DNA of 64,000 nt, taken from a virus. The translations under genes and the position numbers were made by a program. The DNA lies in IMG/VR virus record IMGVR_UViG_3300042549_007551, positions 1 to 64,000 of that record. The stretch is one strand, 5' to 3'. The notes beneath the pieces were generated by a model, which did no database searches, was not told the DNA's origin, and saw nothing but the letters and a program-made list of their open reading frames with translations. This document shows positions 4,820 through 34,900 of this stretch, in pieces; the stretch's first letter is position 1; the number at the start of each line of letters is the position of its first letter.

Positions 4820-6424
4820 ATGGAAGAAAATAAAAAACCAGTTGATCCTATCAAGCAAGCATATGCAAATGTGCTTCAATTTATTACAAACAATTTTTAT
4901 ACAAGTGATGGTAAAGAAATCAAAGTCGTCATTAACAATGAAGACACAGATAATAAGTACGATGGTAATAAGATTGTCTTAAGTGAATCACTTATGGATG
5001 CTTACGGTACATTAAACTTACCAAGATTCCTAATTTATTACCATGAATTAGGACATCACTTATACTCCAAAGGTTTGTTTGTGATGTTAGAAACTTGGTC
5101 TAAAATAACAAGTGGTCCATTAAAATGGATCCAACACTATCATCATCTTATTAATTGGATTGAAGATTTTTATATCGAAAAGAAATTAAAGAAAGACCAT
5201 AGTTATCTTACCGATGTCATCGACTGTATTCGTAAACTAAAACCAGAGTATGACATTACACAGCTACCGTATGCATTTAATTATTATTATGTATACGAAG
5301 CCCCGACTCCTACCTTAACTTATGCTGATCAATTAATATTTAAAGGATACATTGATAAGCTCATGTCCTTTAGAGACACAAACAAAACCAGATTTGGTAT
5401 GGGTATACTAACAACACTTAGTATCAAACCAAGTAATGAAACACAATTTGCTACAACAATCATTGAGTTTTATAACTGGTGCATAAGTAAAAAGATATTT
5501 GATAACACAAATAATCCACCACCTCCACCACTTAAAAATCCTAATCAACATATCAATCCTTTAGATAACAAAGGTCAGATACAACAATTCTTAGATAAAC
5601 TTGATAAGCAAATAGGACCTGACAACCATTTAAATAATGGAGGAACAAGTACTGACCACACTAAAATTGTAGGTGAGTTTGATTTTTACAAAGAAGAATC
5701 TCATGTTAAACAACCTACTGATTTAATTAAAGGGGAACTTGTTCAAGAAAAAACTTTAGTTAATAAAGAACTATTAGATATGTCACAACGTATTCAAACA
5801 GACCATCATACATTAGATGGATTGTTTACAGCACAGTATAAAGATTCTATTACCATACAACCAAAGGTTAATGTACTTAACTTCTTTAATCCACATCGAT
5901 TAGCCGATCAGAATTTGTTCTTAGAAAAAGGACATACCTATATGAACGTTGCAATCTATCGCGACATATCTGGTAGTACCGAAGGTTTTATCCACGAAAT
6001 TATGAGTGATGTATGTGAACAACTGTACAAAGATATACCTGTCGACATCACTTATTATTTATATTCAAGTGGTGACGTCAGCATTATCCAAGTCCCTTAT
6101 ATTAAATGGTCTGATAGTAATAACACACCAAAACAATATGAAGAAGACCCACTCTATAAACAATTAGGTGGCGGTACAAACAGTGACGCGATTGCCGATG
6201 TCATTACCCAACAACTATCTGATAAATGGTTAAACATTATCGTAACCGATGGTGATCTAAACTCATTGATGGCTAGACAAAACATTCACGCTTTGCTAAA
6301 GAATGTATTCGTCGTCTCTGTATCCAGTGAACTAGATAACAATTTAAAAGGTATTTCTATCCGAAATAAAAACGATGTAACAAGTATTAATAGTATGTTG
6401 CAGTCAGTTAATTTGTCTGGTTAA
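4820..6424 (+). CDS. Metallopeptidase-like (HExxH) plus vWA domain protein, MoxR partner
   Basis: HELGH followed by WIEDFYIE; MIDAS DISGS, GGGTN and IVTDG. ORF track starts at TTG 4802; ATG 4820 preferred. Confidence 0.85.
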   Translation: MEENKKPVDPIKQAYANVLQFITNNFYTSDGKEIKVVINNEDTDNKYDGNKIVLSESLMDAYGTLNLPRFLIYYHELGHHLYSKGLFVMLETWSKITSGPLKWIQHYHHLINWIEDFYIEKKLKKDHSYLTDVIDCIRKLKPEYDITQLPYAFNYYYVYEAPTPTLTYADQLIFKGYIDKLMSFRDTNKTRFGMGILTTLSIKPSNETQFATTIIEFYNWCISKKIFDNTNNPPPPPLKNPNQHINPLDNKGQIQQFLDKLDKQIGPDNHLNNGGTSTDHTKIVGEFDFYKEESHVKQPTDLIKGELVQEKTLVNKELLDMSQRIQTDHHTLDGLFTAQYKDSITIQPKVNVLNFFNPHRLADQNLFLEKGHTYMNVAIYRDISGSTEGFIHEIMSDVCEQLYKDIPVDITYYLYSSGDVSIIQVPYIKWSDSNNTPKQYEEDPLYKQLGGGTNSDAIADVITQQLSDKWLNIIVTDGDLNSLMARQNIHALLKNVFVVSVSSELDNNLKGISIRNKNDVTSINSMLQSVNLSG

Positions 6425-6453
6425 CACCAGAGAAAAGGAGTATAATTATATAG

Positions 6454-7392
6454 ATGAATATCTATCAACTAGTCTTCGGTGTTGACTCTGGACAAGTCAA
6501 CTGTGCCTTTCATGATGACTCTACACCCAGTGCTGGTGTTGGTCATGAAGGGCAATACAACTGTTTAACTTGTGGAGCAAAAGCCCACAATGAAATTGGA
6601 TTTATATCTAAGTACTTTGGCGTAAGTCAAAGATATGCAGCGACAATCCAATCGTCTCTGATTAAAGCAGAAGAGTATAAGTATAACAAGAATCCCATTA
6701 GTGAAGAACAAAACAACTACCTTAAAGGCATAGGCCTAAGCGATGCAATCATAAAAGATAATTTCTTTATGGCATCCACAGGTAAGTTAATGTACGAACA
6801 CAAATGGAATGGTGTTAGGATAGGTACAACTTGGTTTAACAATCCAGGTTTATCTAATCACAATGCTACTGCTGCCAAGTACAAGTATGGTCCAGGTGTA
6901 TTCTCAGGAATGCTAACACCTTATGATGTTGTTCAAGCTAACAACACAATCATTATTTGTGAAGGCGAAAAAGATATGCTGACTGCGCGATCCCAAGGCA
7001 TCACCAATGCAGTCGCTAAACTAGGTGGTGCTAAGTCTTATATCATAGGAGGTAAAAATCTAGAGAACAAAAATGTTGTCTTGGTTTATGACTGTGATGA
7101 AGCAGGTAGAGCTGGTGCAAAACAAGATGCGCAAATACTTACGGAACGTTTTAAGTGCAAAGTTAAAGTCATTGACTTAGGTTTAGGCGACGCCGAAGAC
7201 CTCAATGATTTCTTTGTCAAACATAAAAAGACACCGCAAGATTTGTATAATCTATTTAAGACCACGCCTATTTACATAGCCGAGTTAGAAACGGCACAAT
7301 CTAAACTACATAAGCTTGTATCCAAACTCACACCCGATGAGATCGATCAGCTCGTAGTTATACTGAAAGAAAAACAAGGAGAAAAACAATGA
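6454..7392 (+). CDS. DNA primase (Zn finger plus TOPRIM)
   Basis: CAFHDDSTPS..CLTC zinc-binding domain; ICEGEKD and YDCDEAG TOPRIM motifs. Confidence 0.9.
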   Translation: MNIYQLVFGVDSGQVNCAFHDDSTPSAGVGHEGQYNCLTCGAKAHNEIGFISKYFGVSQRYAATIQSSLIKAEEYKYNKNPISEEQNNYLKGIGLSDAIIKDNFFMASTGKLMYEHKWNGVRIGTTWFNNPGLSNHNATAAKYKYGPGVFSGMLTPYDVVQANNTIIICEGEKDMLTARSQGITNAVAKLGGAKSYIIGGKNLENKNVVLVYDCDEAGRAGAKQDAQILTERFKCKVKVIDLGLGDAEDLNDFFVKHKKTPQDLYNLFKTTPIYIAELETAQSKLHKLVSKLTPDEIDQLVVILKEKQGEKQ

Positions 7393-13716: not shown

Positions 13717-13827
13717 CTAACTAAACTCTTTATTGGGGTAGTCGGGTAAGACAATCTATAAACCTTATGGGCTAAAGATTGTAACGTGGGTTCAACTCCC
13801 ACCTACTCCACCAAAGAGTTTAGTTAG
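13717..13827. repeat. 15-bp perfect inverted repeat flanking the tRNA-like RNA
   Basis: CTAACTAAACTCTTT (13717-13731) / AAAGAGTTTAGTTAG (13813-13827). Confidence 0.85.
13735..13813 (+). ncRNA. tRNA-like RNA resembling the tRNA-like domain of tmRNA (Ala identity), with no mRNA domain
   Basis: Acceptor stem GGGGTAG/CTACTCC with G3.U70, discriminator A and encoded CCA; T-arm GTGGG-TTCAACT-CCCAC; stemless D region TCGGGTAAGAC; 7-bp ACAATCT/AGATTGT helix. Confidence 0.75.
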
Positions 13828-13897: not shown

Positions 13898-13921
13898 GGG
13901 TATAAGAATAAACTTATACCC
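13898..13921. terminator. Hairpin at the convergence of the two arms
   Basis: GGGTATAAG-aataaa-CTTATACCC immediately after the giant gene's stop codon. Confidence 0.55.
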
Positions 13922-13923
13922 TA

Positions 13924-16900
13924 TTAACGGAGTGCAACACGACTACGTCTATACCGTACATACTGACGCCACTTTGTATTCTTAACTAAACTATAAGGAT
14001 TAACTCTAGGCTTACGCATAGTTCCGTACTTAGTAAACCAGTCTCTATAAATATTTTCATACTTAGCCCAACGTCCATTGCTACCATAAAGATAACGATA
14101 ACGTTTCGGTGTGTACTTTTCATAATCAGGTACAGTATACAAAGGTAATATGCCTGAACTTAATGGAATGATTGGGTTTTTATTCTTAGAAACAAACGGA
14201 GCTAAAGGACCTTGTGTTAACTGTTCTCTTACAGGTAACTTATTAAGTACGTTACTAATAGGACCTGCAATAGCTAACTGTCTTATGCTTTGTAAAACAT
14301 CTTTTGTTTCTAAAAACTTAGACAAACCTCTTAATAAAGGACGTTGTCTATCTAATAACGAACGACCTGGATCACTTAGTAATTTTTGTACATCAAACAA
14401 ACCAAACCCAAGACGTATACCAACACCATTATATATACGTAACCAACCGTTTTGCATTTCAAATAATTCAAATGGACTGTATTCTCCATCATCATCTGTG
14501 TATTGTCCATACACACCGTCAATAATATCACTCAATAATACAGACATTCTTGGATCTAATATACGATCAATCCAGTTTGTTAAGGAACGAACAGGGAAAG
14601 ATAAATAAGGTATGTCTGCAAGTAACTGCATTTCTAAAGGACTTCTTAATCCGTAATTAAAAAATCGTTTAAGAGAAGAGTTAACAGCTTCTTGGAAAGT
14701 GTAACCTCTTAACTGTCTGTCTAATAAGTAACCTGCAATACGACCTACGTTTTCTATGTTAGCGTTTAAATCAGAGTAAGTATATTTATAACCTTTATGA
14801 ACTAAACCTAATAAACCTTTATTAAATAAACCATTCTTTTCTTTTTCTATTTCATCATAAACTTCTTTAAAGGTTCTTGTTTCAGTATCATTGAAATCAT
14901 TTAACTTTCTTTCTTCTACAATATTTCTTAAGTACTCAAAAGTTTCTTGTCTATATACGTCTACTTGTGCGTTTGTTTGCATGAAAGCACTGACTTCAAA
15001 CAATATCTTTTTAAGATCTTCATAGTCAGCAGAGTACACAGGTTGACCGTTGCTATCTAAAGTAGTTTTATATTTTTCTAAACGTTTATTAATACGTTGA
15101 CGATAAAGATTTGTTTCTCCTGGATTAAACTTTAATGAATCGTACAATGTAAAATATTCTGCGAACCTTGTGTCCCCTAAAAAAGCTACTGATTCTTGAA
15201 GAGCAATATTATATGTAATATTTTTTAAAGCTTTTACATTTTTAAATTTAGAAGTAACTTTGATATTATCTAAATCTTTTATATCTTTAACACCAATAAC
15301 AACGTTTAAAATATAATTACCAATACCTTCTAAACGTTGACTAATTTCTTTTGCTTTAATTAAACGAGTTTCTATTCTTTTTTTAACATCTTCTTTTTTA
15401 ATAGCTTCTGCACCGTCAATATAATTTTTTAATCTATCTTTTATAATATAAAAGTTTTCTGTGATCGTTAAAACTTCTTCATTTGTTACGTTATCTTTCT
15501 TTAAAAGTAACGATAACATCTTATCATATGCAGTTTTAACTTCTAATAAACTTAATAAACGTTCTTCAGATACATCTTTATAAATGTTATAAACATCGTG
15601 AGTCAACCCCATGATTCTAACGATTTGTTTTCTATTTTTAAATGCACCGAAAACACCAAAGTCTTTATAGAGTTCACTATATAATTGAGTCCATGTATCT
15701 AAATAGTTTCTCATAATAAACCCATAGTTAAATCTCATTAATAACTTTTCAAGGTACTGTAACTGTGCTAATATGTTTGACCAACCACCTTTAAATCTAA
15801 ATGGTTTATAAGCTTGGTTATACAAACTCATTAATGAATCGATTGTTACAAATCCAAATTGTAAATTAACACCTTCATCAGCTTGATATTTTTTAATAAG
15901 ATTAAATATTTTTTCTAAATCTTTCCAACTTCTAACATCAATTTGTTTAGTAGTTAAAGATAAATCTTCTTTAAAATTAATATTATCTAAATCTACACTA
16001 GTATATTCTTTACCATTAAAAATAATTGAATTAACTTTTTTATCTTTAGGGTCATTTAATTGTTTGACATATGATTCTATTTCATCAAAGCTATTAAATC
16101 TTACTTTATCTCTATGCTTCGCCGCCCCTATGAACTGTTGCCAACGTGTTTTCTTTTCCCATTCTGGGTCGTTTTTTCTAAACAAATCACCAACACGTTT
16201 TATTAAACCTTCAGAAGCGTAACCATCTTTTACCACAACTAGTCTAATAAAATTAGAATTACGTTTAACATGTTCATACATTGTTTTAAAATCGTATACT
16301 TCTTTTTTAGTTTTGTTACCATTTTGGTCTACAACAATAATGTCTTTTTTATACATACTTGCTAACGTAATAAAAGGAACAACTGATTTATCAATGTTCA
16401 TTAAATTAGTATGTTTAATTCTTTCAACATCTTGTTTACTTAAAGTTTCTTCATCACCCATGATTCTAGGTATACCTTGCTTTAATAAATCCATGCTTTC
16501 GCCTTCAGGAGTATGTAATAAAAACATACCTTGAGCAAACTTACGTGAGAATATTTTAGATATAACTGCTAGTTTAATATCACGTCTTCTCTTTTCTAAC
16601 TCTAATAATTTCTTGTTAAAATAATCTAAGGTATCTTGTTTGCTAAGATCTTTGACTTCATCAATAGCTAACTTTACTTTATTTTCTTCGTTTGATTTTT
16701 GTAATATAAGATTACCTAATGTTTTTATTCTAATTTCTTTACGTTTTATTTCATCGTTTTTACTACGAAGATTATTGTCAGCCACATTTATTTCTTTTAT
16801 GTATCTTTCAATACGATTAAATGATAATTCTTTATTCAATAAACGAATTGCAATATCATTAACAGTCGTTTTATCAACAGTTTTATTTCTGCTGTTATAT

Positions 16901-19900
16901 ATTTTTTGTTTGTCTTCTGTTACTATTTTAAATTCTTTAAATGCGCTAATAAGAACATCTATTAAACTATCAATAGTTACTACGTCTCGTAAAGATTCTA
17001 AGTCTTGGTCTTTTATAAACTCTAAAGCAGTTAATCTTTCTAAGTCGCTGGCATTAGTTTGTTCTGAACCAAGCGCTTTGCTATAACTATTACCATACGG
17101 TTCTAATAATTCACTTGCAATAATACTTGCTTGTTCTTTTAAGGTAGATACAGTTGCACTGTTTTGACTTTTATTTAAACGTTGTGTAACGTTGCCACTT
17201 TCAATATCAATGTTAACGTAGTTAGCATCTACTTCTCTTGAGCTTAAAAAGAAATCTTTACTTGCTTGATACTTCTTATCTAGGTTTAAACGTAACTCTT
17301 CTTTGGCATTATAACCATTAAACTCAAGTAATAACTTATATAAGTAAAATGTTTTATTTAACCACGATATTTCTTTACGATCAATTCTATCATTTGATTC
17401 AGTACCACTGCTATAGCGTGCGTTAATTTCGTTATACGTATTATTTGCCACATTAAACAACCTTAAGATTCTATAAGCAGGCATTTTTATAGCAACTAAT
17501 TCACCTAAGAAAGCATTAACAGTACCTGTTACACCGTTAATAGTTACTTCCGTATCTAATGATTCTTCTAAAGCACCTTTGTTTTTGTAGAAAACAATTG
17601 CAACTTCTTTAATAATATTAAAATAATAAGTTGAAATTTCATCAGGTATTTTTGAATCAGGGAATAATTCTTTCTTAGCATATTGATTTATAACTGTAGT
17701 AATATCATCAATTGCTTTACTTTTTCTAGTGTAGCTTTGTGCTATTTGTACGTTTTTACTTTCTTCATTGTTGTCAATTTCTTTTTCTAATTCTAAATTT
17801 CTTATTGATAAATTATTTGTTTCAATAGGATCACTATCTAATCCAATTGCCAAAGCGTTTTCATGTGCTTCATCTAAACCAATCGTTACTTTTCTTACAC
17901 TTAATTTATCTACATTTTCTTTAACACGTTTTTTAAAGTCTCTTAAGAATTTAGTAACATCCATTCTTAAAGCACCGTGCTTTGCAATACCAATAATAAT
18001 TGTAGCATCGTTAGATTGTTTTCCTAAAATACCACGATCTATAATAACTTGATCTAAGTAATCACTACTATAGATATCAGCCATTGTACTAATGGTTGGT
18101 TTCTTTTTATCGTTAGTAACTTTATCGTTATCTTTGATTGCTTTTTTAAACTTTTTAACGTCTGCGTTATTTCTTCCAAAGTAAAATAAATGTAAATACA
18201 TTTCTTCTACTTCATTTAATTTAGTTTGTTCCATATTTCTTTTAACTAAGTCTCTGTATTTTTCTATTAAAGAACGATAAAAAGGATTTAGTATATCATC
18301 TTCTTTATTAGCAGGCTTTTGATAGTACTTATCAAAGTGTTTTACAATAGCACCCAATTTATATTCTGATTTTAAAGCAAACCCAAATGAAGACATCTCT
18401 TGTCTAACTAATAAAGATAAATAATTCTTATCAAAAATTAAACCTAAGATTTCATCAACACTTTCTTTAAAGTATTCTTTGTATTTAGCAGCATCTTCTT
18501 TATCGATATATACTTTTTTATCTTTATCATAAGCAACTTCTTTAAACCAACTATCATAAATAGTTTCGTTTAACTTTCCTTTAACTTTACTAATAAAAAC
18601 TTTCTTGTCTTTTTCTAGTTTATTTTTTCGGTCAGTAACATTTAAACTTAAATCAGATTCAATATTAATATCGTTAAGTATTCCTTTTAAATTTGTTGCG
18701 CTTAATATTTTATCTGAGAGTGATCTTATTGTTACAACACCTAAGTTAGATTTAAAAGCGTGCCAAGCATTTCCTGTTTGATCTTTATTCATACCTAAGA
18801 AAGGACTTATAATACTTGTTACGTTTTGTATTTTTCTTAAACCACCAAATACACCGATACCGTTTTTAGATGCTTGGAAACGTGTAATAGTTTCAATCAA
18901 ACTTTGAGTATGTAATATTCTTAAAAACAATTTATAAATAATTTCTTTATCTTTTTCGTTTTTTCTTTTGAAAATAGTTTCAACTTTATTTTCTTTTATA
19001 TATTGTTTATCTTCTAAACTAAAATGTTTTTCAATAACTTCATCATTAACTAATACTAAATCTTCTTTAGTCATGTACTTTGTAACATTGTATTTGTTGT
19101 TCTTGATGCTTTGATCAAACAAATAGTTTCTAGCTGCAATTTTATAAAGCGTTTCGTTTGTTTCTAATATTTTATTGACCGCATCTTTTGAATCATATTC
19201 TTTTAATTCAAAACCTTCGTATGCGTTTTCATTATATACTTCACGAATTGCTACGTTTAAAAAATACTTTTTAGCTGCGTCATCATTTTCCCAACCAACA
19301 ACTTTTGGTATTTCTATTTCGCTAATATCCTTTTTAATACCGGCAAAAATAGTTCCATATAATTCTCCAAAAGAATATGAGGTTCTAATAGGTGTGCCAC
19401 TTGCTCCTTTAAACACAGCTTTACCAACACTTGTTGCCTCAGTACTAATGACATCGGTTCTTCCGTTGCTTTTTACATTAGTAAGTAATTCTTTTCTTAC
19501 ACTTTCTAAGTATCCTTTTTCTTTCTTCTTAACGTTATTAATAGAATCCCAGCTCCAGAATCCTTCATCATAATAACTTTCTTTAGTAGCATCATTCTTA
19601 AAGAATAAACCTTTATTAAATTGTTCATTGTTTAAAGCTATCATACCGATGGTATCACCGTCGTTATCAGCACCCATCATTTTATACATGTAAGGATTTG
19701 CTTCAATAGTTTCATTAGTATGATACCCAACAATCTTTACTGTAGGTGTAGACTTAGCGTCTTGGATAGGCCAACGTGCAGCTAATACCCAACCAAACTT
19801 AATACCTTTATTATTTGTTACAAATTTTACTGTATATGTTTTACTATCAACAACATACATTTTGTTTTCTTTGCCACTTATATTGTCGTTTGTTATCCCA

Positions 19901-22900
19901 GATTTATTTAAGTGAATAATAAAATCTTCTAGTTCTTGTTTAGAAGATAATTTAACTTCGTCTTTGTTATTAACAATAGATACGCTGTTGTTTTTATAAT
20001 TTAAAGCAGTATTTATATTAAAACCATTTATTATTTTTGACCAAGAAGCGTCATCAATTCTGTCTATTTGCAGCCAATCCTTATTCTTGCTTAGTTCTTC
20101 CCATCCTTGTCTTGAAGTTCTTAGTTGGCCTAACATTAAATCAGTGTTAGCTAATAATTGTTGTCTAATACCAGGGTGTTTTCTATAAGTATAAGAAACA
20201 ATAGCACCTGTATTTCCAGTTAAAAATTCGCTAGCTCTATTCATAGCTTTTAAGTTTATTTTAGGTAAGATAATTGTTTCTAATTTTAATCTTGTTTCTT
20301 GATTGCTTGTTCTTATAGAGAAGTTTTTATATGTTAAGTAATTAATAACTTCATCTACCATTGGTGTGTTGGTTTCTAAACTAATTTTTTTAGCCATAGC
20401 TTCAATGTCATAAGTACCGTTTGATTTTTTAATAGAATACTTTTCAATGAAAGGAAGTAACCCGTTGTTTTGTATTTCACTAAACACTTCAATTTCGTTT
20501 CTATCTTTTTGATCTAACAATACTTTCCAATTCACACCTTGTGCTTCTAATATTGCTGAAAAGGATGGAGTTATTGGTACACCACCGATGATGCTACCTT
20601 TAATATCCCGTTCAGCAATGGATATATTTTCTTCTTCAATCAATCTAGTTCTAACATTCATTTTTTCTGCAGTATGTTCTGCATCTAAAATGACATATAT
20701 TTCACCGCGTTGAATATCAATTCCTTTAAAGTTTAAAGTATTAATATCTCCGTTACTTAAAATATTGTTAACAATTAAATCATCTTTAATAACATCATAT
20801 ATAATGTCATTCCATACTGAATGGCCATCTGATGCTTTACCAAAAATACCGTCTAATATTTTTGCGTAATCTTTAGCAGCATCTAATATGATCTTACCTT
20901 CTCTAATTTTAAACGTATCTTTTAATTCTTTTTCTTTACTTCTTAATACACTTAAGTTGTTTTTTGTTAAACCATACTTCTTTAGTAACGCGTTATCTGC
21001 AATATTTTTATAACCATCACCTTGTAATTCATCATTAACTAAATACATTCTAACTGCGTTTAAAGTTTGTTCTAATACTGCTCCACCTGCACCACGCTTA
21101 ACTAAAGATTCTTTGTTAGCGACAATATCAACGCCAAACTTTTCTTTTAAACCAACTACATAACGTATGCCACCCTTAAAACCCCACATCCCTAACCAAG
21201 TTTTATTACCTTCATCCATTCCTACAGCTTTAGCATACTCAGCATCAATTAACAAAGCGTCTTCAAAAGCACCTGGATGATTAATAAACCCAACAATAGT
21301 ATTAACACCTATCTTATGTAAGATATCTCGCTTATAAAATTGATATTGTTTTTCTGTTAAATAGTTAGGTGTAAAGATATTAATAACTTTATCTTTACCA
21401 TTCTTATCTTTATAGGTTCTTAATAATCTACTAGTAATGATTTCTTTTTCTTTTGGATCAGCGATACTATCAATAAACTTACCTAAGTTGTCTTCAATAG
21501 TTGTAGCGTTTAACTTATTTAAATCTTCGTATTCGTAATAATCATTAATAATCTTATAAGGAGTATACTCTAAATAAAGTTTATTAAACGATAATACAAT
21601 ACGCCCTGGGTTTGTATTTAATGTATGAGGCATATCAACATTAAGTGCTGTTAAAGGTGGGTTAGATTTACCAGCTGAACCTTCTGCAGATTTTTCTAAA
21701 TCTAAACTTAAACGCACTACATTTTTTCTAGTCCATATAATTAAAGGACTTGTTGAGTACTGTGGATCAACTAAAAATAATAATTTTGCAGGGTCATTAG
21801 CTTTAAACTTTGATAATATTCTGTCAGCAATACCTCGGTATACCTTAACAATGTCTGAATCTTTTTCGTTACGTTTCGCGCTTTGATAAGTATCATAATA
21901 TCTAAAGAATCTTTGCTTTAATACCGTTGTCATATTAATACGTTCTAATGCGCTGTCTGGTATAGCATCATCAAATACTACAGATTCTCTAAACGCTGCT
22001 ATTTCCTTTGCTTTAATTGCTTTATCTGTTTCGTCTTGGGTGTATTCAAACAAACCATCTTTTTGATGTTTAGCTGCTAGTTTAATAGTTTTTTCAATAC
22101 TGTTATAGCTAGCGTCTATTCCATCTTCTAAGTAAATAGCTTCTTTATTTAAACCTGAAAAACCTAACTTACGTTTTCCACTCTTATCCGTATAGTTAAA
22201 GAACTTAGTTTTTAACCAGCCTTCCATGTCTTCATTAGGCTTGGGTCTATAAACAATGTCTTTAGTTTTAACTTCTAAAATTTTACCTACTTCAACATAA
22301 GTATATCTAAATTTAAATGTTGGCATACCACCGCCAGTAGTAAACTGATAATAGTTATATATGTTATTTTGATTATCCATATAACCAACTAAATAAAAAT
22401 TATCAGATGGAGATTTAGCAAGAGCTATATCGTCCTTTACAATTAAAGCTTCTTTATCTAAACCACGATGAGCATCTTTATATACACGTTTAACATTTTT
22501 AACGCCTAGTTTGTTTATAAACGATTGCTCTTCTCTTTCAGTTGCTACTCGTTGTAAACCATCAAGACGTTCATCTGGTGTAAAGTTATTAATATTTTCT
22601 TCGTTTCCGTTTAAAACTGTAAAAATATTGCTTCTTTCAAATTCTGTTTTAATACGTTCTGTATTTCTTAAGACAGAAATAACTTCTAAAAATTTATTAG
22701 TAATAACTTCGTTATTAATTTCTGTATTGTTTTTTGGTACGCCAATCTTTAAATCATTTAAAAAACTAATGTTACTGTTTACATAGTCTAGTTCTTTTTT
22801 TAAAGCCAATGTAATAAGTGTTCTTAAATTAAACTTGTCTATGTTTTTAAGTATCTTTTTTTCTTCTTCAATAACACTTATTAATCCTCTAGCACCTTTT

Positions 22901-25900
22901 TCTTTACTAAGTAAAGATACTAATGAAGCGTATGTTGTATTATCTTTTAGTTCATTTTGTTTACTTACAAGAATACTTAAGGCTTCATTAAACTTAATAT
23001 TTAAATCAGTATCACTTGCTTTTAAATTACTTAACACAGGTTTAAAACTAGTTCCTAGTAAAGATTTACCTACAGTATTCCAAGCATCTTCTACTGTTTT
23101 TAATTTAATGTCTGCATCTTTTTTAAGTCCGGCTACAATTTCTTTAATCTTTTCTTCTATTTTAGCATCAATAATATTTCTGCCGTTTTCAATACCGGTA
23201 GTAAGTTTAACTAATTTACTTTGTCTTTCGTTAAATTCTTTTAATAACTTATTCTTTTCTTCATTTGTTTTTATTTTTATAATACTAGGATCAACCATTC
23301 TACTTAAAACATCTTTAACTTTTTGAGAGTTTAAATCTATTTTTTGGTCAGCATCTGCAGGAATCAGTGTTAATAAAATTTCCATTTCTTCTAAAGTTTT
23401 ATTTAATAACTTTAAGTTTTCATCTATTTCAAATTTTAACAAACCAAAATCAACACTGTTTGTTCTTATGTATTTAAATCTTTTCTTAGCATTTTCTAAC
23501 TGATTGTTTAAAACATTTTGTATACGATAAGATGTGTTGCTACGAATGTTTTTAATTTTGTCAGCAGCTTTTTTTATAATATTTTTTAAGTCATCGGTTC
23601 CTACTTTAGCAGTAACTATTTCTTTTTTTAAATTTTCAACTTCACTAATTATTTGATTTCTTTCTTTGATCAAAGCGTCTTGTGTAGCTTTAAGTTCAAG
23701 TACTTTTTCTTTATGTGATTTAACAGAAGATAAATTAACGTAAGCAATAAATTTTTTAATTTGTTCTATTTGTTTTTCTACACTGTACAAAGCTTCGTTA
23801 TATTCAAAATCATTTAATTGGGTATCTTTAATACCTAGTTCTTTTTTAACAGCTTTTCTTATTGCCATACCTGTACTGGCAATAGATACACCTTGATCTT
23901 CTTTTAAAACGCCATCTTCTAAATAGTTATTGTATTCAAGTTCTGTGTCTTTTAGTAAAGCATCTGCGTACTTTTCAATATTTTTACTTTCATCTGTGGT
24001 ATGTCTTAACTTCCAACCTTCAATAAAGTAAGCAACTAACATATCTTTTAGTCTAGCTTTTTCAGCAGGATCTTTAGTACTGATGTACTCTAATACAATA
24101 TTTGTAACTGATTTAATTTGTGAATTGTTTCCCGTAAATAAAGCTTCTTTAAGTTTTACATTAACTGTAATACCTAGTTTCTCTTCAATTTCTTTCATTA
24201 ATTTTGTTACAATAATCGAACCTATTTCTTGGTTAAACCTAGTCATCGCTGTTATATCAGCATCGGTTAAAGCAATACCTTTATTAACTTTGTTTAATAT
24301 GTTATTAATTTCTTTTTTATTTGCTTCAATAAGTTTTACTTCTTCGCCTTTATCTACAGCATCTTCTACACTTAAAAGATTTAAACGTTCTCTAACAGCT
24401 TTAGGATCGTTTTGTCTTATTAATTGATAGTATAAATTTGTCTTTAATGTTTTAGATAGTTTAAAAATAAACTCATTATAGTTTACAAAGTCAAAACGTT
24501 TACCGTTGTGTGCAACAATAGGTACTGTGTTAGGTAAAGCATTGATTTCAGAAACAAACAAGCGTATAAATTCAATGTCATTAGGTAAACCGGCAATATT
24601 TTTTATGGTTAAATCAATACGTTTAGTATAGTCATCTAATTCATTTTTAGTTAAGTTGTTATTAATATATTCTTCTAACGCTTTAGCATCCCAATATTTT
24701 TTCTTATTAATATCTGCCCATGCTTTAAAGCCTGCGCTTTCTTTAACATACATTTTAACTTGTTGATCATAGAATCCTTCAAGTTCATCTGACTTAGTAA
24801 TAGTTTTAACACCATTTGAATCTATTGTTTCTTCAATACCGTCTATAAAAATACGGTTTGTCATAAATTGGTTTAAAACATTAAACATTAACTTACCTTT
24901 TACACGTGTAACATTTAAGATTGTTAATTGATAAGGGGTTCTTCTTCCACTTTTTTCTGTAATAGTTTCCATGTCTAACACAACAAAACGATCAGGTATA
25001 TTTTTACCACTTAATTCAATTTGTTTCATGTAGTTAAAGAAGGTAACGATGTTATCAACAACAGCGTTGTGTAAGTTTATACCTTTTTCACCATCAATAT
25101 TAGTGCTTTCAATTAAATCAAGTAATGCTTGTTTACCACCTTGATAGTAGTTTCCTGCTTCAGTAATAATACTATCTAACAGTGCTTCTCTGCTAACATC
25201 TTCTTTTATCTTATAGTTATTTCTATAAGTATCTAAGTTACTATTACCGTAAGGTTTGTTTTTCTTAGCTTCAAGTAAAAGATTATCATGTCTTAACTTT
25301 ATAGGTGCACTTTCTTCTTCTAATAAATCAATTCTTTTATTTAGTTTAGAAATCTTATCAGGATTTACAACTGTGTACGTATTGATTGAGTCACGTCTAT
25401 TTTTAAGAGTAGATAGTTCTGCATTTAATTGTTCTTTACTTTTAATTAAAATATCTTCTTCATCATTAAAAGCTTTTACTTCATTACTTAATAAATAAGA
25501 AACAACTTCATCTTCTTTAACTAAACTAATTCCATCTTTTGCAACACGCTTAACAATGTTCTTAATAACATCTTCTGGTTTTTGATTCCCATATTTATTT
25601 ATGTTTTCTAAAGCAGTTTCAGCACTCTTAATGTTTTCTAAAGTAGTTTTAATATTACTTTTTAATTTCTTTAAATTGTAAATTAACTTTGAGAGGTCTG
25701 TATTTTTACTATTAATAATAATGTTATTTACACTAGTAGAAAATTCTTCTCTTAAAGTTTCTAATTGATCTAATGTGTATTCTTCTTTTTCATCTTTTAA
25801 AATCTGTAAAGACTTTGTTTTTAATTTTAAATTAAATCCACTTGATTTAAAATAAGTTGTGTCTTCTTCATTTATCTTATAGATAAGATTTTTTAAACGC

Positions 25901-28900
25901 TTATATAGTTCTTCACTCTTAAGCGTATACAAAACTTTATATTTATTTGTTTCTTTTTTAACTGTTTCTTTTGTAAGATCTTTCTTTTTTATGTTTAATT
26001 TTTTAAATTTGTAGTCTAAAGCTATTTGTATGTAAGTTGCAACCATAAACTTTTTAAAAACATTAGTATATTTTCTATCATGTGGTTTGTAATCAACACC
26101 AGTTAACTTGCTATCTTGTAATTCTTTGACCTTGTTATCAATTTCTTCTTCATAATTTTTAAAGTCTTCAAATTCATACGTAAAAATAAATTCATTTTCT
26201 AATTCCTGTAAGATGTACTTAGCTTTGTCTAAGTATTTATTTTTTCCTTTAACTAAAGAAGCGGTAGCTTCTTCATTTAATACAAGTTTATTTAAATCTT
26301 GTTGTTCTTTTTTAACAAGTTCTTTTGTAGCTTCTTTTATACCACTAAAATAAACTGTTCTAATATTATTTAGATAGTATTTTACAGAAGCAATCTTACG
26401 TTCTTTAGCGCTTTGTGTATCTTCATCTAAGTAACCTTCATTAACGATGTATTGGTTAATGTTATCTATTCTTTTTTTATTTTTTTCTTCAATGTTTAAA
26501 ACAATCTTAGTAAACTTTTTCCATGAATTAGTTTTAATCTTACTGTCTTTAGGACCGGTAGATAAAGTTTGTTCTAAAGCATCAATATCATCTAATTTTT
26601 TATTAGCATTTAATATGAAATCTTTATATCCAGCTGCATTTGTAATATTGATTTTATATTTCTTTAATATTAAAATAGATTTACTGTTATATAAATTTTG
26701 TAATTTCTTTTTACGTATGTTCTTAAAAGCTATATACTCGTTTGTTTTAAAATAAGTTTTTTCTGCCTCAAGTTCAATTAATATTTTTTCTCTTTCTTGA
26801 AAAAATTCTTTAGGTATAAACGCTTTAACTTTTTCTAAAGCTTGTTTGTTTTCTTTTTCAGCCTTATCTAAAACAGTTAACCAATAGTCATTAAATTCTT
26901 TCATTAAACCAGGATTGTTATTATAAATATCAATTAATAATTTTTCTTTATATGCTGCGTTTTTATCTTTTAATACTTCTATGCTGTTGTTAATACCACT
27001 AACAGCTTCTTCTAGTTTACTAATAGCTTTATTTAAACTAGACATGTTCTTATTAATTATTGTGTTTTCATTGATATCAAAATTATAGTTTAACTTAAAC
27101 CCTCTTTGGCTAGCGTTAACAACTTTTAACTCTTTCTTTAATTCATCAATTGTATCTTTAATACTTAACCAAGTAGTAATAGTAGGCAATTGTTTTAGTG
27201 CCATCTCACTGTTTGCAGCCATACCAAGCTCAACAGTATCATAAACATTACGTGTACTTGCATCTAGTTTTAAACTACTTTCTAAAACATTAACAAGGTT
27301 TTCTATTTTTTCAATACGATCTTCTGCTTCTTTACGTTCTGATTTTGACATGTTGTTTAAAACAGATTCAGGATAAATTAACTTTAATAATTTTTTAACA
27401 CCGTGAACACTCTCAATATTGGTAGCAATTTCTGATAGTTTTAATAATTGATTACTAATATTAGCTTCTTGTATATCCATTAACCCTTGTAAAACAAGTT
27501 TTTCACGGTCTTTAATACCTTCTTGTGTCTTTAATTCAAACTTTTGTACAAGGATATAACCCATAATTGCTTTTACTTGCTCAATGTTAACGCCTATTAA
27601 ATAACCGCGGCTGTTAAAATACTTAACAATATCTTTTAATGCTTCTTCTATTTCAATAACTTTCTTAGGATCGTTAATTGTTTTAACATATCTTTCAAAA
27701 TCTTTTTTATAAAGAGTAATATATTTTTTATCTTGTTCTAAAACTAATAAAGCACTACCTATTTCTTTCATCTTAACAAAGTCGTACTTATCTACACCGC
27801 CTTTTAATAAACTTAATACATTTGTATATCGTGTCATTAAGTTTAAATAAACACTGTCTGGGTTTCTAGTGGATACTTTATCAATTGTTTCTGCATAGTC
27901 TTCATTAATAGAGTGAAAGCTAAAATCAGCCAGTGTTTGTTCTATAACTTGTGCCATAGTACTTTGATAAGAAGGATCTGTATTAGGTTTAAACACAGCA
28001 CTAAAAGCATTTCTTGTTGCTTCTCTAGTAATCTTATTAATATTATTTGGCGTAGTCATTAACAACTGTGGCTTAACAGTTACATTAGTATCAGGTGTAT
28101 CTTTTTCTTTTAAAACAATAATGTCTAGTCTATCGTTAATGCCTTTAACATAAGAACCTGCATTACTTAAATGACTTACACTATTAAATATAGATCGTAA
28201 AATACTGTTTTCAAATGGGTCATCTTGTTGTTTAGTTTCAAAAATATTTAAAGCTTCAAGTTTTTTAATACGTCTAATGTTCTTTTTAGCTGCACCAATT
28301 CTAAATTTATTAACTGCATCTTGCCAAGACCATTGTTGTTTAAACTCATTGTTAATAAACTGTGTTTTAGCAAAGTTAATAATGTTTACAAAAGCAAACA
28401 TGTTATCGTTTTTGCTTATGGTGTTATACAACACATCCATGATTTCATCTAATGTATTGTATTTTGTAAATAAATTTTCAACAGTTTCAAAATCAATACC
28501 TAAAGAATTAAATAATTTCTTAGATAAACTAATTCTTTTTTCTTTTTCATTGTGAGTATGACGTATAACGTTACCTTTATAGTCTTTAAACCCAAATAAA
28601 TATTCGTATAAGTATACTTTAAATTTTTTATTATCATCTAATAAAGGTAAATTTATTAAATTGTAAACTTCAAAAGGACTTTCAAATTTGTTTTCTTTTT
28701 TATTTCTTAATAAGTAAGACATAACTTTAAAGACATTATCGTCAATAGGACCTAATCTAGTCTTACCGCTTTCTTGTTTATACTTGTTTAAATCTATTTT
28801 AAATTGTTTAGCGACAGTTTCTATCGTTGCGTTTTCTTTCTTTAATCCACCATAAAACATAATGTTAATAAAAAGCTCAGTCATATTTCTTGCTTCTTTA

Positions 28901-31900
28901 TCTTTAATGCTGTCTAAGTATTCTGAAGCACTGCCAAAGTTTTTAATAAAAGTTGGTTTAATAATTGCTTTACCGGAGGTGTCTCCAAAGAATACGTCTT
29001 CTGCTTTGTTAACAATACTTTCTATGGTTTCTTTAACTACGTTATTAAAAGCAGAAGGAGTTGTTTGCGTTATATTATCAAGAATAACGTCAGTAATATT
29101 AACACCATTTTCTTCTCTAAAATCTTCTTTTGGTTTTTTATACCAGTTCTTTACATTATCTTTATCTTGAATTCTTAAATCTTTAATCATACTTTCTAAC
29201 GTAACAGTACTCTTTGGATCTTTTTCAAGCATCTTTTTATAGCTTAAAGAAGCATTAATTTGTAAATAAATTTCGTTTGTTTTATTAGCATGTAAAGAAA
29301 TATTGTTTATGTATTTGTTTAATGTTGTTTTTAAAACATCTTTTTTAATGCTATTAATTTCTGCGTCACTAACTGTTTTAATGTTGTCATCAAACATAGT
29401 ACTATATTTCTTTATATAATTTAAAATTGCATTAACTTGAGGGTTATTTGTTTTAACATCGGTTATTAATTCTGCTAAAGTCATGTCATCTGGTAACTCA
29501 AGTACGCTTTTTAATTGATTAAAGTAAGTATTAATTGTATTTTTAATAGCAATTTTAATACTTAAGTAGTCTTCATTTTTAAATTTATTAAAAATAGAAT
29601 CATCTATATTTAAATAAGAAGCCAGACCAATTAAAGTTTTATCATCCATACGATCAATATCAAAAGTACTAGGTAAGTTTTTTATTACGTAAAATAAGTT
29701 AGTCCAGTTTAAATTTGTAGCAGTGCCTCTAACCCTAGCGTTATTTGCTTTAGTAGATTCTTTATACAAAGCTCTACTACGTCTTAGCTGTGCTGCTAAA
29801 ACGCTTTCTAATGATACACCTTCAGTTTGTTTGCTGTTAAATTCTTCTTTTAATTCATTGATAAGATTTAACATTCCAACTTTTTGTGCATTAAACAAAC
29901 CTTTGTTGTATTCTTTTTTACCGTTAACTAAAACAAATGTTTTGTTTTCTGAGTGCTTTAAAATATTATTTCTGGTGGACATTTCTTTAGCAGTAATAAA
30001 ACCTTCAAGCCCTGAACCAAAATAATCTTGTAACTTTTTAATAAGTTTTTTGTAATAAATATTATGGGTGTACTTTAAAGAAGATACAAAACTATATGCA
30101 ACGTCTTTTAATTGTTCTATTGTTTTTAAAAACTCTTTATTATAGATATCGTTATAGTTATTAAAAGTAATATCTTCGTTCTTATATTCTTTTTGCATAA
30201 CAATAAGCGCATTTTTAATAGCATCTAATAGTGTTATTTTAATATCAGGTCCTATGTTAGTTGCATTTATTTTTATCTCTGTTAACTGTTCATATAAACG
30301 ATAATTTTCTCTTCTTAAATCAGATTCAAAATTATTAAAGTTATAATTTTCTTTAATGTAACGATCAGTAAAAAAGTTTCGTCCAATAACATCTATATCA
30401 AAAGAACCAAAATCATTGTATAAAAGTTCTAAAAATCTAGCAAAGGCTTTTTCTTTTCTAGCTAGTCTTACAACCCTTTTAAACAAATTGGTTTGGTTAA
30501 AATTAATATTAACAACATCACCAGGTTCTACAATAGTGTATTCTTTTTTTATTCTGGCAAACTCAGTCAACTTTTTAACAAGGTCTTCTCTGCTTAACTT
30601 TAATCTATCAGCTAACTTTTGTAGGTTTTCAACATCTTTTAAGAACCCACCTAAGATACCACCTTGTCCACTTCTTGAAGTTGAGCTCTTAATATTTATA
30701 TAGTTAGATTTTAACTCTCCATTTATATTTCCGTTTTTATCTTTAGTAATAACGTAATCAAAAGTATTAATATATTTCTTAGTCCTTCTCATTTCTAATA
30801 TATCTTTGTGTTGTTCCTCAGTCATGAAGTAAATATTTTTATCTTTAGAGGTTTTATCTTTTAGAGCAAATTTTACAAGGTTATTAAATTCTGAAAAAGC
30901 CGTTTCAAGATTGTCTTTGCTAACAATAATAACTGCACCAGTTTCACTGATGTCTCTTAAAGTTAAAACATAAGGATCGTATCCTTTTTCTTTTAAAACT
31001 TTAGCTATTTTTTTACTTCCTTCTGTATGTAATTCAGTATTGTGTTTGCTTATAATTTTCTCACCAATCTCAGAGTTATAGTTAGGTAATCCTTTTACAC
31101 CTGATTCATCAATATTTGAGTTGCCATTACCATCATAGTGTTCTACCACCATGTATTCTTTTGTCGCAGGATCATAAGCAATAGCAATATTACTATCATC
31201 AGAAGTACTTCTGTTGTTATAAAACATTGTTTCAACTTTTTCAGGGTTATCAACTATGTATTTATAAAAAGCATTAAAGTCTTCTTCTAATGCTTTATCT
31301 TTGATATTGTTTCTAAAGTTTTCATACGCATTAATACGTCTTTGAATATCGATAACTTCATTTTCTAAATCACTAATTTGGTCTTTAATGTTTTTACTCT
31401 TACTATCTTTTCTATTTTTTAATAAAGCTATACGGTTGTTTTGTCTTAACACAACGCCATTAAGTTCTTCTATTTTGTTTAATGTAGCTACACCTTTTCC
31501 TACAGTACCTTGATAAAAGAAAACCTTTTTAACTAATAGTTCTTTGGTTTCTTGTGGTATATCTTTTGCATCTAACACATACAAAATAAATAGTATGTCA
31601 CTACTTACAGGTTTATTAATTGTTTTACCGTTTATAACAACAGTTGTTTCTGGTTTTTTAAATTCTGTATTAGCTTTTTCTAAATAGTAAAATATCTCTG
31701 GTTTTAAAACTAATTGTATATTACTATAACGATTTTTTCTTTTTAAAAATTTAGGGTCTGCAGATTCATATTGAGTTTCTAAGAACAGTAAAGTGTTTAA
31801 ACTTCCGTATGCATTAATGAAATTAATATCATTAACTAAAGCATATTCTTCATCTGTTCCTTTAAACAACTCTCTGCTAATTGTTAACGGTGCGGTTACA

Positions 31901-34900
31901 ATACTACTTCCAAATTTTTTAACGGCGTCTTGGTATTCATTTAATAGTTTATTACCAAGTTCACTAGCTGTTTCAGGTGTTAACGTACCTTTAGCAACTG
32001 TATTTGTTTTTAAACGATCAATAATACTAGACACAATTCTTATGTTTACATGGTGTGTTAGTAAGTATTCTAATAAGTAAACTTTTCTAGATACTTTATT
32101 TTTGTCATTTTTAATATAAATAACTATTTGTTTATCTTCAAAAGCAAAGTAATCTAACTCTTTAAAATCAACTTCTTTTTTAAATGCTTTATCAGTTTCG
32201 ATAAAGCTGTTTAAAAAGTAAACAACTTGCATTAATCCGCTCTTTAAATTAAATGCTGGTTTAATACTATTTTCATCTTCATAGTTTCCAAACGTTTGAA
32301 AGTTAGAGAAAGTAATAATATCATCTAATAAATCTTTATGTTTATCGTCACTAATAGAAAGTGCTTTGTACACACTTGTACTTAAAGTATAGTGCCGATC
32401 ACTAGATGCTCTGATATCTTTTATTTCTGTAGCACGTATACCTTTATCAATAATATTTTTTAGATAACGATGTTTATTATTAAAGGCATACAAATCTTGC
32501 AGTTTAATAGTCATTATCTTTAGAGCATTGCCAGCTATTAATTTATATACATCAGCAGTAATTGATTTATCCCCGCTAATTAACTTTTCAATAAAGTCTT
32601 TTAAATAATCTTTATCATACTCAATATTATTTTCATCAAAATAATTACGTATAGATTCATTAACAGATTGATAGTAAATACGGTTTAATCGTTTTTGTTC
32701 CTTACCATCTAAAGGTAGTTTAATATCAATATCTTCTTCTTTGTTATAAAGATCACCTAAAAGTCTTATCTTATAGCTGTCACTCTTAAACGTTTCACCA
32801 CGTTTACTAAATACTTTGACCTTCTTACCTTCTTTAGAGTTGGATAAAGTATCCCAATCTATTGTAATTACTTTTTCTTTATCTAAACGAACAAGTTCTT
32901 TTAAAACTTTTTCTAAAAAATAATAGTGCCCAGAGGATGTTCTTTTTAATCCCTTTAAAGTTTCTTTATAACTTTTTGCATCGTCTATTGTTTCACTGTC
33001 ACTATTTATAAACATCGCCATTCTAAAATTAAACCTTAATTCTTTAATATTTAAAACACTAAAACCACCGGCTAGTATTTTCTTTAAAGCATTGTAAGGA
33101 TTGTTTTTATCTTTTTCAATATCACTTGTACTTAATTTAAATAATAAATTAGTTAATAAAGATTGAGGTATATTTTCTAGTTGTTTTACAATCGTGCTTT
33201 GAACACTTAATGTACTACTAACTGCTTTTTTAATTGTATTCTTTTTAGCTTCTTCTTGTTTTCTAATTTCCTTAGTTTCAATCAACTCTTCAATCATCGT
33301 GTCGTACTCAGTTAAAAATTCTTTATCACTAAGCACTTCATCTTTTTGTAAGATGTATTCACTTTCAACAACATTGCTTTCTCTTTCTTCTAAAAATTTA
33401 ATGAAAGCTGTATCAATGCTATTAAGTTTACTAACAGCATCTGGTATAGATAGCTTGTTCCAATTTTTTAATTCGTCTTCTGTTATGAAATCAGGGAGTA
33501 ATTCTTTCTTTGCTTCGTCACTTAAAAATAAATTAATATCTTTGTTAACATTAATACTGTTATAGTAATACGATTTAACATATGAATACATTTCATTGTA
33601 TTGTAAAAAGTTATTAATACGTCTTAATTCTTGATCTAAAATATCTTTAATAGCTTTCTTATCTGCTTTATTTTTTTCTGAATCAGAATCAAGAACCTTA
33701 GTTATTTTTTCAATTTGTTTATCTGCACGTTCAAATAATTTATTTACTGTATCTAACTTTTGTTTAAACAAACCATTCTTTTGATTTAATAACTTATAAA
33801 AAACTATTTCTTTTAACTCTGTTAAGCTTACATCTTCAACACTTCTAAAGGTAGGTTTATTTTTGTTTTCAATAACTTTATTGATTGCTTCAACAACACC
33901 TAAAAGACCTCCGAAACTTTTAACTTTATCTGCTGATATATAACTATCTAACTCTAACTTTTTTATAATTCTAATTAATGTGTTTATTTTAGCAGCAGTC
34001 GTTTGTTTGTCCCAGTTTTTTTCGATGTCATCAGCATCAAAGTTTATTAATCCTTTTAATAATAAAGTAGTTTCAAATCCATCTGGAAGTAAGTTATAAA
34101 TTAAACTAACGATATCTTGTTCAATTGTTTTAACAAAAGAAATTTGTACATCAACTACTTTCTTTTTTCTATTACTAGGAGTAATTGTTTTTAAAGTAGC
34201 TCTTTCTATTTCGTTGCCGTCTTTATCAACTAAAGCTACCTTAATTCCATATTGATTAGCTAGATCAACTAATGCATCACCTTCGTCACCTTCAATAAAC
34301 TCATCAATAGCACGTTGTTTATTATACGTATTACGTTGTACATCTTCATCTTTTTTAGGATTGTTCTTAATAATTTCTAACTTATCTTTTAATGTTTTAA
34401 TTGTTGTAGCTTTTTTATCTTGTGCATTTTGTATTTTAGTAATGCTGGTTTCTAAAGCAATAATTTCCTCAGACGCTTTTAGTTTTTCTTCTCCAGTAGC
34501 TTTAACATTTTTAGTAATCTTTAAAAGTTTATTAACTTGTTTTTTTAAATCAACTTTTTCTTTTTCTAATTCTTTATTTTCTTCTTGTAAAGTAGCAAGT
34601 TCTTCATTAATAACTAAACTACTTTTAATAAAAACAGTTTCATTAGAAAATATTTTAAAACCATTAATTACTTTTAAAACGTTAAACAAACTTTGTTGTG
34701 CAACGGTAGTTAATTCATTTACATGTACAAGACCAGCGTCCATAAGAACAAATACTTGACTCAAAACTTTACGGTGTTTAGTAATATACGTATAGTTTAA
34801 TAAAGCATTTCTTTTTGCTACATATTCAAGCGTAACTTTATCATTACCTTTTTGTCCGGCTTTTACAACGGCGTCTAAATCAGGTCCTGCTTTTTTTTCG

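Follow-up and report, generated by a model that had tools for sequence, protein, structure and literature searches.

A predicted single-chain two-barrel RNA polymerase module within an 8,038-residue protein of an uncultured podovirus-like phage

With RNA polymerases (RNAPs) carried in the virion, a phage can begin its programme independently of its host's enzyme. To our knowledge, only a few solutions of this kind are known: the T7-type enzyme of N4, the multisubunit enzymes of jumbo phages, gp66 of crAss-like phages and gp96 of P23-45. N4 gp50 (Schitoviridae), a protein of 3,500 aa from a podovirus of about 70 kb, is packed in the capsid, ejected and transcribes the early genes; this virion RNAP (vRNAP) has a T7-type single-subunit fold that is unrelated to the double-psi beta-barrel (DPBB) enzymes. 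Here, we analysed a 64,000-nucleotide window, positions 1-64,000 of the single 75,790-bp contig of IMG/VR record IMGVR_UViG_3300042549_007551, whose minus strand carries a giant open reading frame (ORF) of 8,038 open codons (13924-38040). On the basis of a predicted structure, aa ~5554-6700 of its product very probably form a two-barrel RNAP, with a beta-like and then a beta'-like half on one chain.

Among the described two-barrel enzymes, phi14:2 gp66 is the vRNAP of crAss-like phages (PDB 6VR4; 10.1101/2020.03.07.982082). In P23-45, gp96 is a tape-measure-fused virion two-barrel RNAP of 5,002 aa, and gp64/P74 gp62 is a non-virion RNAP (nvRNAP; PDB 8H2N, 8H2M, 8F5M; PMC10770324). Large polyvalent proteins have been described in phages and conjugative elements (PMC5512222), and phi24B gp47 contains the domain LPD38 (10.64898/2026.04.10.717836); this last study discusses only N4-type RNAP modules in polyvalent proteins, and the term 'double-psi' does not occur in its text.

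Motifs, conservation and predicted fold of the polymerase module

The giant protein has a mass of 921.5 kDa, a pI of 8.95 and no cysteine, and its gene takes up 31.8% of the genome. Contigs of four lake or freshwater runs (records dated 2016-2024), one or two of which may be the source of the present sequence, cover 13900-33899 with 0-1 substitutions and no frameshift. Since these contigs agree, the giant ORF is not an assembly artefact: it is real and recurrent.

A first-pass annotation of the window, made from the letters and the reading frames, had proposed a single-chain two-barrel RNAP from a series of motifs, and all of them lie at the residues and nucleotides where it had placed them. 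Along the chain, and on the minus strand as for all features of this protein, they are NHPGAFEDALLIDAEYA (aa 5587-5603, nt 21232-21282), EGNKTWLGMWGFKGGI (aa 5610-5625, with K5613 and K5622), GVDIVANKESLVKRG (aa 5636-5650), GEIYVILDAEHTAEKMNVR (aa 5779-5797), WVLAARWPIQ (aa 6084-6093), NPYMYKMMGADNDGD (aa 6115-6129, its DNDGD being encoded by exactly nt 19654-19668), SKNGIG (aa 6391-6396) and IGIAKHG (aa 6683-6689). The nearly invariant pair E5593-D5594 in AFEDAL (21259-21264) is proposed, from motif and fold, to correspond to the acidic residues of GYNxED(A/S) in beta. It is followed by two conserved barrel lysines in NKTWLGMWGFKG (21175-21204; K5613...G5620, K5622, G5623), a segment that is invariant in one family alignment and conserved in a second. 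We take K1065/K1073 and E813/D814 of E. coli beta to be the equivalents of K5613/K5622 and E5593/D5594. Further on, the [RK]xP element R6089-W-P6091-I-Q6093 (19762-19776), in which R, P and Q are invariant, stands 33 residues before D6125-N-D6127-G-D6129 (19654-19668, in GADNDGDT). This putative Mg2+-binding catalytic triad is invariant in all relatives, and DNDGD is the sole DxDxD among the 8,038 residues. The R-to-D spacing is 36 aa here and about 34 aa in E. coli beta'. Taken together, R6089-x-P6091...D6125-N-D-G-D6129 satisfies the pattern [RK]xPx{20,100}DxDxD that serves as a filter for two-barrel RNAPs (PMC10770324, Supplementary Data 4).

The module belongs to a small family. Among 1.84 billion cluster representatives only 26 proteins matched aa 5520-6700, and 11 of the 26 are giants of 7,377-7,828 aa that carry the matched segment at an equivalent point along the chain. 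Scans of IMG/VR and metagenomes gave 21 loci, all of them (21/21) with DNDGD inside a giant open frame, on contigs of 72-82 kb where complete. Judged by record names, the family is present in lake, estuarine, digester and rumen metagenomes, and it is also present in lake runs; no RNA data set was among the runs listed. In the family alignments, whose sequences are 22-60% identical overall, the residues that are invariant or nearly so are E5593/D5594, D5599, K5613, G5620, K5622, G5623, D5786, R5959, R6089, P6091, Q6093, D-N-D-G-D-T 6125-6130, R6387, K6392, G6399, K6403 and K6687. That DNDGD, RxPxQ, both lysines and the other basic residues are invariant at only 22-30% identity indicates selection on catalysis. 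We therefore regard it as very unlikely that the fold was kept while the module became mainly a structural element, either an ejection conduit or a tape-measure-like ruler, with its polymerase activity lost or minor. Such a role would suit aa ~700-5200 of the giant protein, which are rich in Lys, Glu and Asn and mostly not conserved in sequence, and P23-45 offers a case of an RNAP fused to a length-determining protein (PMC10770324), but that fusion is active and the catalytic-type residues of the present family are strictly invariant.

To predict the fold, aa 5520-6700 were modelled with AlphaFold2 (AF2) from 25 family rows and no templates, which gave a mean predicted local distance difference test score (pLDDT) of 83.5 and a predicted template modelling score (pTM) of 0.79. 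In a Foldseek search against the PDB, the top 50/50 matches, at E 3e-5 to 1e-3, were largest subunits of multisubunit RNAPs. VIA-align, which does not depend on Foldseek, was used for an unbiased comparison with 48,161 PDB representatives and returned two-barrel RNAPs at all of ranks 1-20 (20/20). Residues 1-328 of the model aligned with second-largest subunits (Z 10-12.3), and residues 344-1181 with largest subunits (Z 10-11.3), led by vaccinia Rpo147 at 11.3 and including those of Pol I and Pol II, the archaeal and plastid subunits and bacterial beta'. Below the RNAPs came other double-psi barrels (Cdc48-N, UFD1 and VAT-N), aligned on second-barrel residues at Z 6.5-7.9. Matches in BFVD were viral RNAPs, including gp66 and crAss-like proteins.

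The predicted beta-like half with the first DPBB covers 20500-21381 (aa ~5554-5847, model 35-328). It aligns with RPB2 of African swine fever virus (ASFV) at Z 12.3 (217 residues aligned, root mean square deviation, rmsd, 3.7) and with the AR9 nvRNAP chain 7s00_C at Z 11.6 and 20% identity, as well as with Pol IV NRPD2, Rpa135, the phiKZ nvRNAP, plastid beta and Xanthomonas beta. A helical connector between the halves follows at 20188-20454 (aa ~5863-5951; AF2 helices 360-422), and the beta'-type alignments begin at model ~344-373. The beta'-like DPBB (19480-20187, aa ~5952-6187), with the invariant R5959 in RKHPGIRQQ, aligns over model 433-668 with Rpb1, beta', Rpo147 and plastid beta' (Z 11-12).

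Both halves can also be superposed in one rigid body on single-chain enzymes: QDE-1 (Z 9.9, 305 aligned, rmsd 4.3), P74 gp62 (9.1), RDR2 (8.8), P23-45 gp96 (8.8 and 7.7) and phi14:2 gp66 (6.6, 319 aligned). Since these enzymes align across both halves, the mutual arrangement of the two barrels seems to be that of real enzymes, the whole-span alignments serving here as a proxy for motifs that converge on one site. In the model, two double-psi barrels, the first of second-largest-subunit type and the second of largest-subunit type, appear to face one cleft. The barrel pair that the first-pass annotation had foreseen is thus present in the predicted structure, and QDE-1 and gp66 were matched structurally; a profile comparison with gp66, rpoB and rpoC, which it had also had in view, was not significant.

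The whole-span matches to QDE-1 and RDR2, together with PolD DP2 at Z 5.3, could also speak for a two-barrel polymerase with another job, such as primer-making, RNA-templated synthesis of the QDE-1/RDR kind or DNA synthesis of the PolD kind, and an exonuclease-like domain does lie about 1,100 aa upstream of the module. We hold this for highly unlikely: the best matches of each half are subunits of DNA-dependent RNAPs, at 16-21% identity, PolD scores far lower, and PolA, primases and a helicase are already encoded elsewhere in the phage genome.

Two further helices follow the beta'-like barrel. The long helix at aa 6362-6408 (18817-18957; AF2 helix 843-889), which contains RFQASKNGIGVFGGLRK and the invariant R6387, K6392, G6399 and K6403, is a bridge-helix/motif-F candidate; alignments with archaeal Rpo1N and ASFV RPB1 stop at model ~900, opposite residue ~860 of the matched chain. 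The helix ending in IIIGIAKHG (17974-18036, aa 6669-6689), with K6687 invariant and H6688 nearly so, is a trigger-loop candidate; many alignments end close to it, at model 1163-1181 against Rpb1 ~1080-1099 or beta' ~926-942. These alignments are approximate rather than residue-level, and we assign the two elements tentatively. The first-pass annotation had read SKNGIG and IGIAKHG in this way: SKNGIG does lie in the long helix, at the expected place although without residue-level equivalence, and IGIAKHG as a trigger loop is plausible.

None of the searches by sequence or profile recovered this relationship. The whole giant protein had no relevant match in Pfam or PHROGs, and the Pfam models of Rpb1, Rpb2, RpoB and RpoC gave no match at E<=1 in the giant protein or in 16 relatives of the RNAP region. 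Searches of the PDB with phmmer and with the family profile returned chance matches only. With hhalign, the family profile reached a probability of 0.2% against phi14:2 gp66, and its comparisons with rpoB and rpoC of E. coli were not significant; even so, the top local alignment to beta', itself non-significant, puts DNDGD on NADFDGD. Using tblastn at E<=1, the RNAP core found nothing in 50,697 phage records, and a scan of species genomes yielded no relative of it. Our literature search found no paper on the motif or on a comparable podoviral two-barrel vRNAP, and the motif strings are absent from the searched supplementary files of PMC10770324, a study that covers 23 RNAP families.

These negative results, and the shallowness of the folding alignment (25 rows), are what an artefact would look like, namely chance motifs and a model drawn towards a common fold. 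We nevertheless find this extremely unlikely: no templates were used, both halves independently led to RNAPs among the 48,161 representatives in 20/20 top matches, the next-ranked matches were other DPBB domains, and the motif positions and the R-to-D spacing agree with the fold.

Relation to described polymerases

Like gp66, the module would consist of one polypeptide with two DPBBs, beta-like then beta'-like, and in both cases the gene lies in the structural region of a podovirus-like phage; both proteins are also very large and poor in cysteine (2 in the 2,180 aa of gp66). Unlike gp66, it has no detectable sequence relation to that family, it carries DNDGD instead of DFDxD, and gp66 scores below the multisubunit-type subunits as a structural match. 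The giant protein is also 3.7 times longer and comes from a phage unrelated to Crassvirales. Moreover, packaging and activity are proven for gp66, while the giant protein is known here from its sequence and predicted fold. Membership in the gp66 family was rejected in view of the missing profile similarity, the other motif and the lower structural score.

P23-45 gp96, whose virion role is known, is likewise a two-barrel RNAP embedded in a giant protein of a phage that is not crAss-like. There, however, the RNAP is N-terminal in the tape measure of a siphovirus, whereas here it lies at ~70-83% of the chain in a podovirus-like phage in which no tape measure was detected, and the two proteins have no sequence similarity. 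In contrast to P23-45, no second, non-virion RNAP was detected. With gp96 described, a virion two-barrel RNAP in a phage that is neither crAss-like nor jumbo is by itself no novelty. The first-pass annotation had named the crAss-like and jumbo-phage enzymes as the known ones, correctly as far as they go, and left out gp96 (PMC10770324).

The closest structural resemblance is to the multisubunit beta/beta' enzymes of cells, of nucleocytoplasmic large DNA viruses and of jumbo phages (compared structures: AR9 7S00, phiKZ 7OGP, ASFV 8Q3B, vaccinia 6RFL), with top per-half Z scores of 10.9-12.3 and 16-21% identity on the beta-like half. The motifs of the giant protein (xEDA, K..x..KG, RxP, ADxDGD) look cellular too. 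Unlike these enzymes, it has one chain instead of two to five, and it gives no Pfam signal. Zn sites are impossible because there is no cysteine, and the flap and wall insertions are missing, since only ~20 aa separate the ED pair from the first lysine; the N-terminal two-thirds of beta, with its N-terminal lobes, was not identified in the giant protein. As Z scores for halves and for wholes are not strictly comparable, we propose a placement in the 'multisubunit clade' (PMC10770324) only tentatively.

With N4 vRNAP, the giant protein shares its large size and the lack of cysteine (0 in 3,500 aa for N4), and differs from it in fold type, with no similarity in any search. Pfam and PHROGs found no T7-like or N4-type polymerase in the giant protein, and an N4-like, T7-type identity was discarded because the predicted fold of the region is of the two-barrel type. 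Finally, like the large polyvalent proteins, which are predicted or shown to travel with the DNA, the giant protein is very large, multidomain and encoded by a late gene.

What is new is an apparently separate, unannotated family. Its distinguishing features are near-cellular motifs and a minimal, cysteine-free single chain located deep inside the largest such protein seen, and it sits in a podovirus-like lineage without a cultured member. As the first-pass annotation had supposed, this points to an undescribed lineage: the RNAP core has no match in the 50,697 deposited phage genomes. Going further, we put forward as a conjecture, possible rather than probable, that the family represents a third, independent lineage of virion-delivered single-chain two-barrel RNAPs. 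It would have arisen from the multisubunit (cellular/jumbo-phage) branch by fusion and drastic trimming, with loss of the flap, the Zn sites and the cysteines, and would now be part of a 0.92-MDa ejection protein with an exonuclease-like module and a membrane-active N-terminus. In that case, an uncultured podovirus-like clade with genomes of ~72-82 kb, living in lakes, digesters and rumen, would open each infection by passing a minimal cell-type RNAP through the tail.

A further family of this kind would help to show how small the universal two-barrel core can become, bear on whether single-chain viral RNAPs descend from or predate the cellular enzymes, and provide a compact enzyme for biochemistry. 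It also illustrates that such enzymes escape standard annotation (Pfam, PHROGs, BLAST) altogether and that one gene can fill 32% of a phage genome.

Expression and the proposed packaging and role

Provided that the region is an RNAP, we consider it rather probable that the giant protein is packaged and injected, as the first-pass annotation had proposed. This is suggested by analogy with N4 gp50, phi14:2 gp66 and P23-45 gp96, by the position of the gene in the late arm after the capsid gene, by the zero cysteines, by the hydrophobic segment near the N-terminus and by the lack of another phage RNAP. Cysteine is absent from all 8,038 aa and numbers 0-4 in the giant homologues; it makes up ~0.12% of residues in the structural arm against 0.51% in all other ORFs of >=150 aa together, and the replication proteins of the plus arm are clearly richer in it. 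Pfam and PHROGs scans of the other large ORFs revealed no other phage RNAP.

The expression signals read from the sequence would fit this view. On the minus strand, an intrinsic-terminator-like hairpin with T8 lies at 38061-38090 (within 38041-38093). Downstream of it, TGCTATAAT, an extended -10-like element (TGnTATAAT; 38051-38059), ends 10 nt before the ATG of the giant gene, which with its own terminator and promoter would be a unit separate from the capsid operon. As this element is so close and no Shine-Dalgarno sequence precedes the ATG, the mRNA of the giant gene may be near-leaderless. TGCTATAAT has two further copies. One, at 38514, lies ~40 nt before the start of a 112-aa ORF and overlaps the capsid gene at its end; the other, at 58652, precedes another late unit. 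Host RNAP presumably reads these elements, and that they stand before three late units, the giant gene among them, is consistent with transcription of late genes by the host enzyme.

A giant gene with its own terminator and promoter might also be expected of an active two-barrel RNAP that is not injected but made late and at work in the cell, for example on middle or late genes or on replication intermediates, or of a polyprotein cut into products; the giant protein also strings together separately conserved modules (exonuclease-like, RNAP, N- and C-terminal domains). Both variants seem unlikely to us. A late-made, unpackaged enzyme could be of no use to early transcription, host-type extended -10 elements precede those late units that were seen, and the lack of cysteine matches N4 vRNAP, which is an injected protein. 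In addition, Pfam and PHROGs detected no protease domain on the giant protein, and the one-chain architecture is kept in all relatives.

The explanation that we favour overall, with moderate confidence, is that a single-chain two-barrel vRNAP resides in a packed and ejected giant protein and starts early transcription. In this scheme, aa ~5554-6700 would act as a DNA-dependent RNAP, in which a beta-like barrel bearing E5593/D5594 and K5613/K5622 leads through the connector to a beta'-like barrel that would hold R6089-x-P and the Mg-binding triad D6125/D6127/D6129, with the bridge-helix-like and trigger-loop-like helices after it. The module would be carried within the 921-kDa, largely helical protein of this podovirus-like lake phage. 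Most likely, the capsid would contain one or a few copies, which would leave it through the tail together with the DNA. Passage across the envelope would be aided by the hydrophobic segment near the N-terminus and by the long helical regions; once inside, the polymerase module would transcribe the first phage genes and make the host enzyme unnecessary for this step. Host RNAP would read the late genes, the giant gene included, from the extended -10 promoters. It is catalytic activity, template preference, packaging, ejection and timing that we infer here.

Several points weigh against this explanation. First, by sequence, no method ties the region to any RNAP family, so that the fold assignment rests on one AF2 model from a 25-row alignment. 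Second, the N- and C-terminal domains of the giant protein match no known ejection or internal protein. Third, k-mer and mismatch-tolerant motif searches of the early intergenic regions found no repeated promoter motif above shuffled controls. Finally, a chain of 8,038 aa is far larger than any ejected protein known to us.

Other regions of the giant protein and genome context

Outside the polymerase module, three regions of the giant protein stand out. A Gly/Ala-rich hydrophobic segment near the N-terminus (36406-36978, aa ~355-545) is conserved in relatives and contains, at aa 415-442, the only strongly hydrophobic 19-residue windows of the protein; it may have a membrane role. A candidate exonuclease of DnaQ/DEDD type (24481-24984, aa 4353-4520) shows an invariant D-x-E (D4356, E4358) and HNGxxFD (D4517). 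Its D, E, H, G, F and D columns are invariant in the family alignment and resemble ExoI and ExoII, and the profile of this block gave only sub-threshold PDB matches, to the ExoII region of archaeal PolB and to TREX1 (E 0.03-0.9).

The C-terminal domain (13927-16143, aa 7300-8038) is the most conserved part, with 33-60% identity to family members. Its AF2 model is weak (pLDDT 64), and VIA-align matched it only to generic helical bundles (Z about 8). A feature search of the ESM-Atlas led to LPD38-bearing clusters (score 0.94), a lead left unconfirmed, as Pfam matched neither LPD38 nor any other LPD in 16 C-terminal domain sequences. When shorter proteins with the N- or C-terminal domain were sought, all matches belonged to this one metagenomic family; most were on short contigs, and 'hypothetical protein' was the only name given. 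On two full-size related contigs, of 77.7 kb and 76.6 kb, the C-terminal domain is part of a much shorter called protein (P0020 with 1,500 aa and P0035 with 762 aa, respectively); in these, the giant gene may be split, frameshifted or recoded. A 13.7-kb contig from one of the lake runs represents a second, diverged relative that occurs in this sample too; its matches to the window are confined to 19654-19686, which codes for DNDGD, and 14013-14061, in the C-terminal domain.

The genome is organised in two arms. The plus arm, on the plus strand, wraps from ~75.1 kb to 13.7 kb and encodes DprA-like, clamp-loader-like, primase, SSB-like, helicase, family A DNA polymerase, exonuclease and Sak4-like proteins. 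The minus arm, on the minus strand from ~74.9 kb down to 13.9 kb, contains in order a D5-like primase-helicase, small ORFs, TerL, the portal, tail and fibre proteins, the capsid protein, the 112-aa ORF (38111-38449, minus strand) and, last, the giant ORF. The capsid gene (38519-40600, minus strand) encodes an unusually long protein of 693 aa, of which only residues ~74-290 match major head proteins (phrog_1357 and the major capsid protein, MCP, of API480), and which has no Pfam match.

The closest matches to TerL (31% identity), the capsid protein (27%) and PolA (29%) are from the Paenibacillus larvae podophages API480 and SV21, the nearest cultured relatives, and crAss-like records are absent from the organisms listed for the TerL and capsid matches. 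Judged by these matches, the phage is not crAss-like, which bears out the first-pass annotation. Its description of the capsid as N4-gp56-like did not hold, since tblastn with the capsid protein returned only the API480 and SV21 capsid genes and one unannotated record. As for the portal, called P22-like, P22_portal was found only below threshold and Pfam SU10_portal above the cutoff. The annotation of API480 includes no RNAP, and a gene of the giant-protein type is lacking in both API480 and SV21. We also considered descent of the giant protein from the large protein of API480, gp16 (1,631 aa), which has no support since BLASTP found no similarity.

Two neighbouring minus-strand genes probably encode receptor-binding proteins. 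The first (51559-57297) specifies a 1,912-aa protein with a lamin-tail domain, RCC1-repeat propellers and a tail-protein match, and the one next to it (57290-58621) a protein with BspA-type leucine-rich repeats. ARAGORN found no tRNA or tmRNA anywhere in the window; the sequence at 13717-13827 ends in a T-arm-like GGTTCAACTCC followed by CCA.

The contig ends share an imperfect direct repeat, 1-286 against 74536-74823 at 96% identity and 326-862 against 75253-75790 at 89% identity; the copy at the end is longer by ~430 bases. Neither a clean terminal repeat nor a circular overlap looks like this, and the cause could be a mixed-strain assembly or a diverged duplication. Finally, GC content is 26-30% inside the giant ORF against 33-40% elsewhere, and GC skew is strongly negative on the plus strand across 14000-36000, both of which probably reflect the Lys/Asn/Ile-rich composition of the giant protein.

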